Positions 5,606 to 46,815 of a stretch of 64,000 nt of DNA are shown piece by piece. The first letter of the stretch is position 1. Each line of letters starts with the position of its first letter. A program made the position numbers and the translations under genes. The stretch covers positions 6,045 to 70,044 of the forward strand of contig JAFVBZ010000048.1 of NCBI GenBank assembly GCA_017479645.1. Reading direction: 5' to 3'. The notes below the pieces were generated by a model, which saw nothing but the letters and a program-made list of their open reading frames with translations, did not search any database and had not been told where the DNA came from. This stretch comes from Ruminiclostridium sp. (GTDB lineage: Bacteria > Bacillota > Clostridia > Oscillospirales > Ruminococcaceae).

Positions 5606-6562
5606 ATGAAAGAATTGGAAACCAGGATCAACGATATCGTCAGAACTCTTCTCAACGACTACGAGCAGGGAAGAGTCATCGATGAGGTAAAAAGCTTCGA
5701 TCACCCGGATAAGGACGTTGTGGTCGAGATATTATACAGCATAAGGAAGATAATCTTCCCCGGCTATTTCCGGAACAAGTCCTACCGCGTATATACCGTC
5801 CGCAACAACATCTCCATGCTCACCGAGGACATAATATTCAAGCTTATCCGCCAGATATCCATAGTCCTCCGCTATGACGAAGAGCTGAGCAGCGCAGATG
5901 AGATGACGGTGGCACAGCGCGCCGAGGACATAACATTCGCGTTTCTGTCGCGGCTCCCGAAAATAAGAGAGTACATCGAAATGGACGTGGAAGCGTCCTT
6001 CGAGGGAGACCCCGCCGCATACAACAAGGACGAGATAATCTACTCATATCCGGGGCTGTTTGCTATCCTCGTGAACCGTATCGCCCATGAGCTGTTCCTG
6101 CTTAAAGTTCCGCTCATACCGCGTATAATGACCGAGTATGCCCACAGCCAGACCGGTATAGATATCCACCCCGGCGCGTCCATAGGCAAGTATTTCTTCA
6201 TAGACCACGGTACAGGTATAGTTATCGGCGAGACTACCGAGATCGGCGACAATGTCAAGATCTACCAGGGTGTTACCCTCGGCGCGCTTTCCACACGCGG
6301 AGGTCAGAGCCTTCGCAGCAAGAAGCGTCACCCCACGATCGAGGACAACGTTACTATCTACTCCGGAGCATCTATCCTCGGCGGAAATACCGTCATAGGA
6401 AAGGGCGCGGTCATAGGAGGCAACGCATTCATCACAAAGTCCGTTCCCGCAGGCGCAAAGGTAAGCATAGTAAATCAGGAACTAAAGTATAACTTCGATG
6501 ATCCGAAAGCCGCAAAGAATGCGGGTATCGGCACGGATACGGATTGGTTCTATATCATCTGA
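5606..6562 (+). CDS. cysE: Serine O-acetyltransferase (EpsC/CysE long form)
   Basis: [39 protein letters not shown] hexapeptide motifs; GGAGG RBS before ATG 5606. Confidence 0.9.
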
Positions 6563-42270: not shown

Positions 42271-43234
42271 ATATCTTATGCACCTCTTCCCAATCCGGCA
42301 TCGCAGCTCTCATTCCGTCCCACACCGGCATTCTGTATTCCGGTGCGGCATCGCGCAGCTTGTTGAACTCACGGTCAAGGTACTCCATTTCGGTCACGGC
42401 ATTCCTGCAATGGTCGGTGGCCGCCAGCTCCCCAACAAAGGTTTTTGCCATTGCACGAAGCGCCAGATTGGTTGCTGTCATTTTAGCTCCGCTCTCAAAG
42501 TATGTCTCATCTCCGGCAGGACATATCTTTATCCCCGCTCTTTTTATCAGACCGTAGGCTTCCTTTGCTGCAGCGGTGATATTGTTCACCTCCTGCTTTG
42601 ATGCTGTACGAAGGTTACAGCCCCGCTTGTAGCTCAGATAAACTATCGGCAGAATAAATGCGGCATGGCAGTACAGCCAGCCCTCCATGTCGTCCATGAA
42701 CCCGATTCCGTATTTCGAGCCGGAAAGCGCTGTCCGCAGCGCAGTTTCGTCCCGTGTGGACGGGAGAGTATGCAGCCCGCCGACAACAAGCCTGCTGCTG
42801 CCCCACCTTACACAGATCGTGTGATTGCCCTCGCGCACGCCGCCGGTACCCTGAAATCCGAACAGCAGGGTCTTGTCATCACCCGCAAGACGGTGAAATT
42901 CACGCTCGGTATCTGCTGCGCAAAGATTATTTCCCACAAGCACAAACAGTGGAGCGTTCACCTTGGCGATCACCGGCAGGAGCGCAGTCTGCTGCTGTCC
43001 CTGCATTATCGAAAACACGATGTCATAGCGTTCGTTTTCGTCCGCTTTCCCAATGACTTTCGGACGGTCGATCGTTTTCTTTTTTTGCAGCTTATGCTTT
43101 ATGCGAAGCCCGTATTTTCCCAGTATTTTTCGTGTTCTTCCCCGTGCGCAGACAGTCACGTCATTTCCCGCACGACACAGAACGTGTGTCAGATATGAGC
43201 CTATGACTCCGCAGCCGTAAACAAGAATCTTCAT
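42260..43234 (-). CDS. Ketopantoate reductase-family oxidoreductase
   Basis: VYGCGVIGS Rossmann motif, ARG, WLYCHAAF. Confidence 0.85.
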   Translation of the reverse strand: MKILVYGCGVIGSYLTHVLCRAGNDVTVCARGRTRKILGKYGLRIKHKLQKKKTIDRPKVIGKADENERYDIVFSIMQGQQQTALLPVIAKVNAPLFVLVGNNLCAADTEREFHRLAGDDKTLLFGFQGTGGVREGNHTICVRWGSSRLVVGGLHTLPSTRDETALRTALSGSKYGIGFMDDMEGWLYCHAAFILPIVYLSYKRGCNLRTASKQEVNNITAAAKEAYGLIKRAGIKICPAGDETYFESGAKMTATNLALRAMAKTFVGELAATDHCRNAVTEMEYLDREFNKLRDAAPEYRMPVWDGMRAAMPDWEEVHKIYDK

Positions 43235-43251
43235 ACGTTTATCCTCCGTTC

Positions 43252-43303
43252 GTTAGCTCCAGCTAACTTTATTTATAATAGCACATTGCCATCTCTTTGT
43301 CAA
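43252..43303 (-). promoter_or_regulatory. Sigma-A promoter plus GTTAGY operator (copy 4)
   Basis: TTGACA-17-TATTAT on the minus strand, then GTTAGCTCCAGCTAAC (43252-43267). Confidence 0.8.
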
Positions 43304-43529
43304 TATATTAATGAAAAAACCAACATCTTAGCCGTGCCGGCCCGGACACTCATGGTTTCGGGCATTTATAGAAGATCCCGTCACGATATCTGCCCTTGTC
43401 CAAATGAACTTTCCGGGCGGCATGGTATTCCTTCCCGTTTCCCGCATCGTACCGCTTCTCGTACTATTATGCCGGATTGTCAATGCTTTCATGATAATTT
43501 TCTGTTACAATGATATGACAGTAAAACTA

Positions 43530-43590
43530 TTGACTTTTTTACAAAGCTGTGTATAACAGAGCGGAGTTAGCCTCAGCTAACACAAGGAGG
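43530..43590 (+). promoter_or_regulatory. Orphan promoter, GTTAGY operator (copy 5) and RBS with no following ORF
   Basis: TTGACT-16-TATAAC (43530-43557), GTTAGCCTCAGCTAAC (43566-43581), AAGGAGG (43584-43590), no start codon at RBS distance. Confidence 0.7.
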
Positions 43591-43599
43591 CGCGAGAAC

Positions 43600-43873
43600 G
43601 GCAGCAGCCGTATTGCTGCCACTTATAATAAATGTGTCCTCAATAACTGCCTTTTGGCAGTTATTGGCTGAAAATCTGCAAAACAGATTTTCAGATGTTG
43701 TTTAAATGCGCCTGTGGTGCATTTAAACAACGGACACATTCCTTGATGTCAAGCTCATTTCGTCCTTCGGACGAACAAAAGTGCAAGGAAAATCCTAAAA
43801 TATATAAATTTTCCTTGCACTTTTGCAGCCAATAAATTGCTTCAAGCTGCGCTATGAAGCAATTTGTTGGCTG
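43600..43873. other. Seven consecutive hairpins (structured ncRNA or MITE-like element)
   Basis: Stems of 7, 11, 11, 13+, 7, 18 and 19 bp, several separated by only 0-2 nt. Confidence 0.8.
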
Positions 43874-43884
43874 ATGAGCAGACA

Positions 43885-44016
43885 TTAAATATCGTCTAAC
43901 AGGCGACGAACCTCATCCTCTCCTCAGCGGTATCCACGCTTATAAGATGGAACATAAAACGTTCCCTTGATATCACTTACAAGTTTGGTGTCCAATAGTA
44001 TTTGATTATCGTTCAT
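43885..44016 (-). pseudogene. N-terminal stub of a DUF262 (GmrS/ParB-like) gene
   Basis: MNDNQILLDTKLVSDIKGTFYVPSYKRGYR*GEDEVRRLLDDI*, matching the DUF262 P-x-YQR-x-Y-x-W motif with Q>K and W>TGA; intact TTGAAA-17-TATAAT promoter. Confidence 0.75.
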
Positions 44017-44433
44017 TCTGAGTATCCACCCTCTATTTATATCAATAATCCTTAGGTCCGACCCTTATCATATTATATCACAAATTGGCAATAATTTCAA
44101 CGCTTTTTGTTACTTTTTAACAATTTTCGGCTTTAATCTTCTCAATATACTCATTATAGCACATCAGTTGTCCATTTGTTGCATATCAAGAGCATATTTC
44201 GAAACTTTACAAATTCTTTTACTTTTCTTCACTTCATAAGATATACAATAATTCATAATTAGCTTATGAGAAGTTCGCCGACGGCACCGAGAAATGTATT
44301 CAGCTGCACATAGGAAACGGTGTGCAGCTGTATAAATTTATTGACAATATCGGCTCAATTTATAAGCAACAGAGGTAATATACTCCATATCATCTTAAGG
44401 CGATATATCTGAGTCAGCAGGAACAACATCTGA

Positions 44434-44484
44434 TTATTTATCCTCGCCCTTGTTTTTCTTTACCGTAAGATCGTAAACGCTCAT
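44434..44484 (-). pseudogene. Possible glutathione peroxidase N-terminal stub
   Basis: MSVYDLTVKKNKGEDK* with AAGGCGG RBS; only 16 codons. Confidence 0.35.
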
Positions 44485-44647
44485 AATATCCGCCTTGTTT
44501 ATTATATAACTGCCGGCGCGACTTGTCCGTAACAACGCCCGCAGAAAAGCACTTATTACTGATAGGAATATTCGGAGTTTTTTGCATAAAGATTTTTATT
44601 CAGGATATTTCAGTTTAGTGATATGTTCCAAAGTTAAGAAAAGGCTA

Positions 44648-44712
44648 TTGACATTCGGCGGGATATAGTGTATTATAAGCGCATAGATTTTAAACATATC
44701 ATATTGATATGT
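44648..44712 (+). promoter_or_regulatory. Promoter of the sulfate operon with a downstream palindrome
   Basis: TTGACA-17-TATTAT (44648-44676); ACATATCA-TAT-TGATATGT (44694-44712). Confidence 0.7.
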
Positions 44713-44736
44713 ATAGTAGGCAAAGGAAGAAGAACT

Positions 44737-44781
44737 ATGAAAAGAATAATCAGAACAGCGGGAGGAGTTGTGCGCTGTTGA
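44737..44781 (+). CDS. Candidate Cys-sensing leader peptide (14 aa)
   Basis: AAGGAAG RBS; MKRIIRTAGGVVRC-TGA, 60 nt before the sbp ATG. Confidence 0.5.
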   Translation: MKRIIRTAGGVVRC

Positions 44782-44841
44782 ACCTGCATTCCGTTTGAAG
44801 TCAAGATAACAACCTAACAATAACGAAATGAGGTATTCAAA

Positions 44842-45906
44842 ATGAAAGGTACATTTTTTAAAACAGCAGCAGCTTCTCTTGCACTTATAACAACAATATT
44901 CGCGGCAGCATCATGCGCGAACGCGTCGGCATCAAACGCAGCGGAGACATCGGGTACTGCATCGGAAGCAGGAAAGAATTACTCGATCATTAACGTTTCC
45001 TACGACCCGACCCGCGAGCTTTATGCCGCGTATAACGAAGCTTTCAAAAAGCACTGGGAGTCCGAACATGATTCCACGGTTGAGATAACCCAGTCCCACG
45101 GCGGTTCCGGAAAGCAGGCTCTTGAAGTAGCGAACGGCAACCCCGCAGATGTAGTGACCCTTGCGCTCGAATATGATGTTAAGGCAGTCGAGGACGCGGG
45201 GCTTATCGAGCCCGGCTGGGTAAGCGAGTTCCCGCTTGACAGCTCGCCCTACACTTCAACTATCGTTTTCCTTGTAAGAAAGGGCAATCCGAAGAACATT
45301 CTCGACTGGGGCGACCTTGCCCGTGACGATGTAGGCATCATCACTCCGAACCCCAAGACCTCCGGCGGTGCTCGCTGGAACCACCTTGCGGCATGGGCAT
45401 GGGCACAGCGCGAATACAACAACGATGAGACAAAGGTGCTTGACTACATCAAGACGCTCTACTCCCACGTTCTTGTACTCGATTCGGGCGCACGCGGTGC
45501 AACCAACTCCTTCGTTGAGAACAAGCAGGGCGATGTGCTCCTTGCATGGGAGAACGAAGCTTTCCTCTCTCTGAAAGAATATCCGGACGAATATGAGATA
45601 GTTACTCCGAGCATCAGCATACTCGCACAGCCTTCCGTTGCTATTGTCGATAAAGTTGTTGACAAGAACGGCACACGCGAAGTTGCGACCGAGTATCTCA
45701 ACTACCTCTACTCCGAGGAAGCTCAGAGAATTGCGGGCGAGAACTTCTACCGTCCGTCCAATGAAACGGTGCTCGCGGAATTCTCCGACACCTTCGACCT
45801 TAACATAAACCTCGTAACCATCAACGATTTCGGCGGTTGGGACGAAGCGTTTGCAAAACACTTCGCCGACGGCGGACTGTTCGACCAGATCTACGAACAG
45901 GATTGA
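44842..45906 (+). CDS. sbp: Sulfate ABC transporter substrate-binding lipoprotein
   Basis: NVSYDPTRELY, SHGGSGKQ, PYTSTIVFLVRKGNPK, NPKTSGGARWN, WENEA. Confidence 0.95.
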   Translation: MKGTFFKTAAASLALITTIFAAASCANASASNAAETSGTASEAGKNYSIINVSYDPTRELYAAYNEAFKKHWESEHDSTVEITQSHGGSGKQALEVANGNPADVVTLALEYDVKAVEDAGLIEPGWVSEFPLDSSPYTSTIVFLVRKGNPKNILDWGDLARDDVGIITPNPKTSGGARWNHLAAWAWAQREYNNDETKVLDYIKTLYSHVLVLDSGARGATNSFVENKQGDVLLAWENEAFLSLKEYPDEYEIVTPSISILAQPSVAIVDKVVDKNGTREVATEYLNYLYSEEAQRIAGENFYRPSNETVLAEFSDTFDLNINLVTINDFGGWDEAFAKHFADGGLFDQIYEQD

Positions 45907-45936
45907 TCGCTATCTTGCTCTCTTTCCGATAAATTG

Positions 45937-45966
45937 GTATATCCCTGCCTTCGGGCGGGGATATAC
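45937..45966 (+). other. UUCG-capped hairpin between sbp and cysT (likely mRNA-stabilising or attenuating)
   Basis: GTATATCCCTGCC-TTCG-GGCGGGGATATAC. Confidence 0.6.
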
Positions 45967-45984
45967 TGCAAAAGGTGCATTTTT

Positions 45985-46815
45985 ATGAAAAACAATAAAA
46001 GGATCATTCCGGGCTTCGGGATATCAATGGGCGTAACTCTTGCGCTTTTGAGCATAATGGTTGTGATACCGCTTGCATCTCTCGTGGTGTTCACCGCGAA
46101 AATGGATTTTTCGGATATCATAAAAGTCATCACCCGCCCGCGTGTCGTCGCAAGCTTTGAGGTGACACTGCTCACCGCGTTCATCGCCTCGGTCATCAAC
46201 GCGGTAATGGGTGTGATACTTGCATGGGTGCTTGTACGCTACAACTTTCCCGGAAAACGCATACTCGACGGTATGATCGAGCTTCCGTTCGCGCTTCCTA
46301 CCGCAGTGGCCGGCATCTCTCTTACCTCGCTGTATGCGGATTCCGGCTGGATAGGCGGGATCTTTGCCCAAATGGGCATAAAGATAGCCTATACCCGTAT
46401 CGGCATAACGATCGCGTTGATATTTATAGGTATCCCGTTCGTTGTGCGCACCGTACAGCCGGTGCTCGAAAAGCTCGACCCGCTGTATGAGGAGGCTGCC
46501 GGCATACTCGGCGCAAGCCGTACCCGTACATTCCGGAAAGTGATACTGCCGGAACTGCGCCCGGCTATATTCACAGGCTTCGGGCTTGCGTTCGGACGCT
46601 GTCTCGGCGAATACGGAAGCGTCGTGTTCATCGCCGGCAACCAGCCCTATGAAACGGAAATAACGCCGCTCATCATAATGTCGGAATTACAGGAATACGA
46701 CTACTCAAGCGCCACCGCGATAGCGCTTGTAATGCTGGCTGCGGCATTCCTGATACTGTTTCTCGTGAACCTGATACAGATACGGAACTCGAAGATACTG
46801 AAAGGGGGACACTGA
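45985..46815 (+). CDS. cysT: Sulfate ABC permease CysT
   Basis: LPFALPTAVAG, PFVVRTVQPV, EEAAGILGA, GEYGSV. Confidence 0.93.
   Translation: MKNNKRIIPGFGISMGVTLALLSIMVVIPLASLVVFTAKMDFSDIIKVITRPRVVASFEVTLLTAFIASVINAVMGVILAWVLVRYNFPGKRILDGMIELPFALPTAVAGISLTSLYADSGWIGGIFAQMGIKIAYTRIGITIALIFIGIPFVVRTVQPVLEKLDPLYEEAAGILGASRTRTFRKVILPELRPAIFTGFGLAFGRCLGEYGSVVFIAGNQPYETEITPLIIMSELQEYDYSSATAIALVMLAAAFLILFLVNLIQIRNSKILKGGH

Follow-up and report, generated by a model that had tools for sequence, protein, structure and literature searches.

The usual routes of cysteine control in Firmicutes are the T-box, the S-box and CymR. The leader described here appears to be of a different type. It lies ahead of sbp, the first gene of a sulfate assimilation operon, in a 64,000-nucleotide stretch of Ruminiclostridium sp. 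DNA (the window: positions 6,045 to 70,044 of contig JAFVBZ010000048.1, assembly GCA_017479645.1, forward strand), and it contains a 14-codon upstream open reading frame (uORF) whose last sense codon specifies cysteine. The closest described systems are the polycysteine leaderless short open reading frames (ORFs) of Mycobacterium smegmatis (Ms5788A; the 'Cys ribulon'), in which stalling of ribosomes at Cys codons prevents a duplex from sequestering the downstream ribosome-binding site, as established by mutagenesis and proteomics (Canestrari et al. 2020, bioRxiv 10.1101/834739). The window leader shares with them the position of a short ORF in the 5' leader of a cysteine or sulfur operon, a control that appears to be translational and not exerted by termination, and a duplex sequestering the downstream ribosome-binding site, which a paused ribosome would block (here computed only). 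The mycobacterial ORFs are leaderless, whereas the window uORF is led by a Shine-Dalgarno (SD) sequence and the transcript probably starts about 50 nt upstream of it. They have at least two consecutive Cys codons, whereas the window uORF has one, the last before the stop, and some relatives have RCC or more. They encode no conserved peptide and occur at several loci per genome, whereas the sbp uORF encodes a conserved [A/S]GG[V/I/L]xRC and is found once per genome, in the sbp leader only. The phylum is also different, the present leaders belonging to the Firmicutes (Oscillospirales). In the literature, Cys-responsive short ORFs were found in mycobacteria only, and no such element was found reported in Firmicutes. 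Because the logic of Cys-responsive short ORFs has already been demonstrated in mycobacteria, the mechanism proposed here is new for Firmicutes but not new in kind.

Several other leader systems are related in part. In the trpL, hisL, pheL, leuL and thrL attenuators, a translated leader ORF likewise senses charged tRNA via its regulatory codons. The window leader differs from these in having no terminator or antiterminator, its presumed output being SD sequestration, in its single regulatory codon and in a peptide that is conserved beyond that codon. In the translational attenuators of ermC and cat, as in the mechanism proposed here, a hairpin hiding the downstream SD is opened when the ribosome stalls on a short leader ORF, and the nascent peptide matters; they respond to an antibiotic that binds in the exit tunnel, whereas here the signal is presumed to be the cysteine supply. 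Ribosomes stalled on leaders of this type in Firmicutes also stabilise the mRNA. TnaC and SpeFL are comparable in their conserved C-terminal region, in arrest at or next to the stop codon and in an Arg near the C-terminus. They differ in that their output is Rho antitermination, no Rho having been found here, in that their ligand is known and none is known here, and in having no sequence similarity to the uORF peptide. Arrest peptides were found in the literature only for Sec/YidC, tna, speF and similar systems. The Cys T-box and CymR systems have the same physiological target, sulfur assimilation; the present leader has no match to the T-box or any other Rfam family, and its sensing element would be a translated ORF.

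The leader is organized as follows, in coordinates of the window.

44648-44676, plus strand: sigma-70-type promoter TTGACA-17-TATTAT, matching the consensus at 11 of 12 positions, with the TTGACA and the -10 box conserved among relatives.
44723-44730, plus strand: purine-rich SD sequence of the uORF, AAAGGAAG, 6 nt 5' of the ATG.
44737-44781, plus strand: leader uORF of 14 codons plus stop, encoding MKRIIRTAGGVVRC (ATG 44737-44739, TGA 44779-44781).
44758-44778, plus strand: peptide motif A-G-G-V-V-R-C (GCG GGA GGA GTT GTG CGC TGT), conserved in the family.
44776-44778, plus strand: Cys codon TGT, the last sense codon of the uORF and the presumed sensor.
44778-44795, plus strand: anti-SD arm TTGAACCTGCATTCCGTT, which begins within the Cys and stop codons (pairing and comparison).
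44822-44840, plus strand: SD arm AACGAAATGAGGTATTCAA, which includes the sbp SD GAGG at 44830-44833 (pairing and comparison).
44842-45906, plus strand: sbp, the sulfate/thiosulfate-binding protein gene (Pfam scan), with its ATG at 44842.

Transcription probably starts near 44683, about 50 nt 5' of the uORF ATG, and 60 nt separate the uORF stop from the sbp start. An earlier reading of this DNA, made from the letters alone (the sequence-only reading), had described the uORF with its ribosome-binding site and final TGT, and a pairing of about 16 bp that covers the sbp SD; both are exact to the base. The 16 bp of the helix (TTGA:TCAA, ACCT:AGGT, CATT:AATG and CGTT:AACG) are interrupted by one bulged G, one C/A mismatch and one 2-nt bulge, and the RNAduplex energy is -12.4 kcal/mol. 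The same reading had seen no intrinsic terminator, and there is no terminator-like site within 44700-44842, the SD helix having no U-tract 3' of it; transcription attenuation was rejected on this ground. T-box and riboswitch mechanisms were also rejected, because the Rfam 15 scan of 43000-46000 (E<=10) gave just chance-level miRNA-type matches and no known RNA family within 44683-44842. The Rho RNA-binding domain (PF07497, Rho_RNA_bind) has no match in the genome, which is 96% complete, so that the incompleteness of a metagenome-assembled genome (MAG) is a caveat, and the absence of Rho may be real. It argues against Rho polarity reaching the downstream genes and against tna-like antitermination, and Rho-dependent control of the latter kind was rejected. 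The lack of a terminator, of an Rfam family and of a Rho domain together argue for a translational, not a transcriptional, output.

It is moderately probable that the leader is a ribosome-mediated translational attenuator which reads the supply of charged tRNA-Cys. The sbp mRNA would begin near 44683 and carry a well-initiated 14-codon leader ORF ending in UGU. In the free RNA, the 18 nt that start inside the Cys and stop codons would pair with the sbp ribosome-binding site and mask it. When Cys-tRNA is ample, the ribosome would decode UGU, terminate at UGA and depart, the helix would re-form, and Sbp would be made at a basal level only. When Cys-tRNA is scarce, the ribosome would pause with UGU in the A site, its mRNA channel holding about 12 of the next nucleotides, including the anti-SD core; the SD would then remain single-stranded and sbp would be translated. 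The nascent [A/S]GG[V/I/L]xR probably tunes the pause and could make one codon sufficient, for instance through slower peptide-bond formation or release. As RNase J is present in the window's genome, stalling of the ribosome close to the 5' end might also keep this enzyme off the long operon mRNA and thus stabilise the whole transcript, as stalled ribosomes do on erm leaders in Bacillus. The analysis shows the anatomy of the leader, its conservation, its coding constraint and covariation, and that the switch is thermodynamically plausible; cysteine as the signal, the part played by the peptide and the stabilisation of the mRNA are what we infer.

The central proposal of the sequence-only reading, that a ribosome stalled at the Cys codon frees the sbp ribosome-binding site, is supported by folding the leader with and without a ribosome footprint. 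The footprint was modelled to cover -15 to +12 nt relative to either the Cys codon in the A site or the stop codon, and the pairing was calculated by partition function. The predicted probability that the SD is unpaired rises from 0.01 in the free RNA to 0.50 with the footprint on either codon, and from 0.00-0.09 to 0.4-0.7 in the leaders of the window's clade. An initiating ribosome, modelled by a footprint at the uORF start, leaves SD accessibility unchanged. Counted from the first base of the stop codon, the partners of the SD are at +4 to +9, so that the anti-SD appears to occupy exactly the segment that would be held by a ribosome paused on the last sense codon. In this model, a non-starved ribosome spends the least time on the helix if the stop immediately follows the sensing codon.

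Further evidence comes from relatives. The sbp loci gathered number 80 from species-representative genomes and 65 from metagenomes. A full-length sbp orthologue is present in 4 of 37 genomes of the window's genus, and sulfate assimilation is therefore an accessory trait there. Nearly all sampled Oscillospirales sbp loci, with Sbp identities from 99% to about 67%, have a short SD-led uORF 50-130 nt upstream of sbp. The conservation of a Cys-ending uORF before orthologous operons was the test that had been set beforehand: 35 non-redundant sbp leaders from Ruminococcaceae and Oscillospiraceae bear a uORF ending [A/S]-G-G-[V/I/L/M]-x-R-C or a remoter variant of it. The Cys codon is present in every member, and an SD of the GGAG, AGGA or AAGG type precedes every uORF start. 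The relatives' peptides include MKKTIRTAGGVARC, MKILSGKSGGIARC, MKDYLAAGGMIRC, MKKNFNAAGGVIRC, MIIRYFAAGGLIRC, MKICQSIFTTAGGVIRC, MLRNDEFFFAAGGVIRC and ...FCVDAGGIARC, each followed directly by the stop; remoter endings, again up to the stop, are ...NGIRC, ...SGIRC, ...RYGRC and ...SGGPAYC.

Variation in the uORF follows the reading frame. Among the 31 sequences that have the motif complete, the first two codon positions are invariant at the Gly, Gly, Arg and Cys codons, and the entropy of position 3 is 1.1-1.6 bits at Gly, Gly and Arg and 0.35 bits at Cys (GGA/GGC/GGG/GGT, CGC/CGT/CGA and TGT/TGC). The codon of the -3 residue always has T as its second base, giving hydrophobic Val, Ile, Leu or Met, and its first base is variable. 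Such three-base periodicity points to a translated uORF whose amino-acid sequence is under selection. The motif served to select the members; what counts is therefore its constant presence at orthologous positions together with randomised silent sites. Conservation is limited to the C-terminal 7 residues; the N-terminus is variable and the uORF is 13-32 residues long. Because the N-terminus and the flanking RNA cannot be aligned among distant members, the conserved block does not merely reflect recent common ancestry. This apparent selection on the peptide is an addition to the sequence-only reading, as a pure hunger-codon model does not predict it. The Gly-Gly codons of the window (44761-44772) also spell an SD-like GGAGGAG, 4 nt 5' of an in-frame GTG at 44770, which gives a nested 'VRC' mini-ORF. 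The resemblance to an SD is probably incidental, because it is lost in relatives that use GGC GGT.

As a real uORF, GGxxRC-stop occurs once in the window's genome. In 20 carrier genomes the motif is likewise found once per genome and always in the sbp leader, the extra matches being chance matches in long ORFs or start-less, with one duplicate aside. That duplicate is in G453, the genome of locus L010, which has two leader copies (C79:849-869 and C127:11378-11398). One of them precedes an sbp that is truncated after about 20 codons by the end of its contig; the duplication probably reflects strain heterogeneity or a chimeric contig end. A multi-locus 'ribulon' was rejected, as there is a single uORF per genome and a motif survey of an even sample of 400 genomes from the order gave chance matches only.

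The Cys codon is the common feature of the family, and its surroundings vary. The codon that follows it is TGA (23), TAA, TGG, TGT or TGC. Additional Cys codons are found in the variants, as RCC in L017, L025, L101 and L111 and as RCCWERTVCCGRMC in L102, whose whole peptide is AAGGIIRCCWERTVCCGRMCQQA; read-on variants end in RCCG, RCCGR or RCCLELTADIS before their stop. The Cys codon is TGT in 29 of the 31 members, whereas the window's genome uses TGC for 70% of the Cys codons in its long ORFs. The bias to UGU may reflect a preference for the less-used codon or a constraint at the nucleotide level. The sbp leader of a Lachnospira sp. MAG (L057:1290-1460) has an unrelated uORF, MRNQFNIYESCCCCCCMKRSIYKQNIRISGGIYL, with six consecutive Cys codons and a stop that overlaps the sbp start (ATGA); it looks like an independent poly-Cys design at the sbp locus. 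Elsewhere among the other lineages, Cys-ending uORFs before sbp were about as numerous as expected by chance, by our own estimate. A 'CCC' ORF in L108 was rejected, being out of frame within the apparent end of the upstream gene.

The helix that the SD forms with the segment next to the stop was compared in an alignment of 13 leaders of the window's clade, for which RNAalifold predicts it independently. The cells of the helix are paired in 87.5% of cases, compared with 39-50% when the 3' partner is slid, and four pairs change on both sides (for example, CATT:AATG in the window and TGTT:AACG in L011). A covariance model built from this alignment recovered 34 leaders, giving 31 distinct rows. 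In these, 82.8% of cells are paired against 36-47% in slid controls, 13 of 16 pairs show compensatory changes, and none of 500 shuffles reaches the observed score, with the qualification that an alignment fitted to the model leans toward the structure. In 13 of 24 loci, the duplex energy between the 31 nt 3' of the Cys codon and the SD region is better than in dinucleotide shuffles; all 13 belong to the window's clade or adjoin it. The compensating anti-SD stem postulated by the sequence-only reading is thus conserved in the window's clade. The competing stem which that reading had also proposed inside the ORF, AACAGCG (44754-44760) with CGCTGTT (44773-44779), exists as 7 perfect base pairs in the window, but it is neither conserved in the clade alignment nor predicted by RNAalifold. 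It is probably irrelevant and was left out of the model.

A number of observations weigh against the attenuator described above. Taken alone, the window gives little support to the helix: the whole leader is not more stable than its shuffles (fold z-scores of -0.5 and -0.2), and the z-score of the helix duplex is about -2 (p of about 0.03-0.07). The case therefore rests on the comparison with relatives, which overall supports the interpretation of the sequence-only reading. In that comparison, the Ruminococcus clade (L016-L018, L021, L023-L026 and L029), which makes up about one third of the family, has no significant pairing between the post-stop segment and the SD, its SDs being only partly paired, so that the anti-SD cannot be the universal output. 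An anti-SD within the 5' part of the uORF in this clade was considered and rejected, the duplex energies not being significant. The window uORF has a single Cys codon, where known Cys attenuators have at least two consecutive ones, and one hunger codon only should give a shallow response. A model based on hunger alone does not need the strong conservation of the peptide, which hints at another or an additional signal, or at tuning of the pause. The read-on variants (RCW..., RCCLELTADIS) have a different geometry. In the footprint model each round of uORF translation opens the helix, whether cysteine is present or not, which makes the dynamic range uncertain. Finally, masking of the SD directly controls sbp alone and not the other 14 genes of the operon.

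A second possible site of control lies between the promoter and the uORF.

44694-44712, no strand assigned: perfect 19-nt palindrome ACATATCatatTGATATGT, 18 nt downstream of the -10 box and followed by ATAGTAGG (44713-44720).

The half-sites CATA...TATG are retained in sequence among relatives. Other lineages have CCTATC-N5-GATAGG at this position, and the Paenibacillus sbp loci have ...GATAGGAATAA, which we take to be CymR-box-like. The window's genome has three Rrf2 genes. The palindrome is probably a repressor operator, or else a 5'-terminal RNA hairpin; a repressor of the Rrf2/CymR-like type is a guess. If it is an operator, it would provide a second, transcriptional layer of sulfur control. 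The sequence-only reading had set its mechanism apart from T-boxes and CymR. The separation from T-boxes stands, given the lack of any T-box or other Rfam match, and a CymR-type operator in the palindrome may act alongside the leader peptide.

The conservation of the peptide makes it necessary to consider that the leader senses something other than tRNA charging. If it were a true ribosome arrest peptide of this kind, which is unlikely, the ...GG[V/I]xRC chain would create a binding pocket within the exit tunnel, comparable to that of TnaC for tryptophan or of SpeFL for ornithine. A metabolite of sulfur limitation, such as O-acetylserine, would block Cys incorporation or RF2-mediated release at UGA, and the halted ribosome would either expose the sbp SD or protect the mRNA. 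The 31 sequences, with their synonymous variation, display the hallmark of ribosome arrest peptides encoded ahead of the gene that they regulate, a variable N-terminus followed by a conserved C-terminal motif (here 7 residues). The motif persists in the clade that has no anti-SD, making the peptide the constant core of the family. The Arg two positions before the stop resembles that of TnaC, which ends in ...R-P-UGA, and in the footprint model the SD is freed to the same extent by a ribosome at the stop codon as by one at the Cys codon. RF2 reads both of the stops used by the uORFs, UGA and UAA, and UAG does not occur among them, but TGA is simply the commonest stop in the genome (50%). The ligand cannot be inferred from the sequence, and free cysteine in this role would have the wrong regulatory sign. 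Arrest strictly at termination is opposed by the read-on variants that have Trp or Cys in place of the stop (L016, L017, L021 and L025), and the accumulation of Cys codons in L102 fits hunger sensing better. A broader formulation, which appears somewhat unlikely, is that [A/S]-G-G-[V/I/L]-x-R-C is an undescribed arrest peptide that reshapes the peptidyl-transferase centre and makes the final Cys or the release at UGA rate-limiting, so that one codon or a tunnel-bound metabolite switches sulfate assimilation on. It would act by unmasking the SD and, in leaders without the anti-SD, by another route, for example by blocking RNase J. If this leader is an arrest peptide, it would be the first one dedicated to sulfur metabolism.

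In the footprint model a terminating ribosome opens the helix as well as a stalled one does. The uORF might thus be a constitutive translational opener with no cysteine sensing, the output of sbp following uORF translation and sulfur control being exerted via the putative operator at 44694-44712. The conservation of the palindrome 3' of the -10 box and the Rrf2 regulators of the genome agree with this proposal, but it is rather improbable, since the invariant Cys codon, the added Cys codons, the preference for UGU and the peptide motif are left unexplained. The selection on the amino-acid sequence would also be expected if the 14-residue peptide were a small protein that works in trans, for instance on the transporter, its position in the leader being incidental. 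This is highly improbable: the last 7 residues alone are conserved in peptides of 13-32 residues, the peptide lacks hydrophobic character, the motif is found a single time per genome and always in the sbp leader, and the RNA after the stop co-evolves with the sbp SD.

If the leader is indeed an attenuator that reads charged tRNA-Cys, a translated leader would represent a fourth, unreported layer of Firmicute cysteine control, and Cys-codon attenuators would not be a mycobacterial peculiarity. The setting is that of abundant fibre-degrading Ruminococcaceae of the rumen and the gut, whose growth there is influenced by the sulfur source chosen. The element is compact and sharply delimited, with 14 codons, one Cys codon and one helix, and its natural variants (RC-stop, RCC, RCW..., poly-Cys, with or without the anti-SD) amount to a mutational series. 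It would therefore be a convenient system for asking how a single hunger codon makes a usable switch and whether the ribosome becomes more sensitive to one aminoacyl-tRNA through a conserved nascent peptide.

The operon that follows the leader extends to 60428 and, according to Pfam scans, has the order sbp-cysTWA-hemA-sirC-hemC-cobA/hemD-hemB-hemL-sulfite reductase-aprA-aprB-cysD-cysN. Its products include a SirC-like dehydrogenase, a small NIR_SIR/ferredoxin sulfite reductase and AprA-like and AprB-like proteins. As judged from these domains, the leader heads a complete unit for sulfate uptake, sulfate reduction and siroheme synthesis, which would be the right context for a cysteine-sensing element. 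The window's MAG (275 contigs) has 36 tRNA genes and none for Cys, Asn, Phe or Tyr, a gap that reflects the incompleteness of the MAG.

Two further observations concern the sbp loci of relatives. A shared nucleotide block, GCGAATGT(GA)CCC(CC), follows the uORFs in the leaders of L016, L021, L103 and L034; these uORFs include the read-on forms RCW...SERM and RCW..SQRM and the Cys-less MYRIMRMY in L034, each up to its stop. In Treponema/Spirochaetaceae MAGs (L027, L028 and L031-L033), the sbp leaders have no Cys uORF and carry instead a CCTA...TAGG palindrome after the promoter. The sbp of these MAGs is 71-74% identical to that of the window, which suggests lateral transfer of sbp between rumen Firmicutes and spirochaetes.

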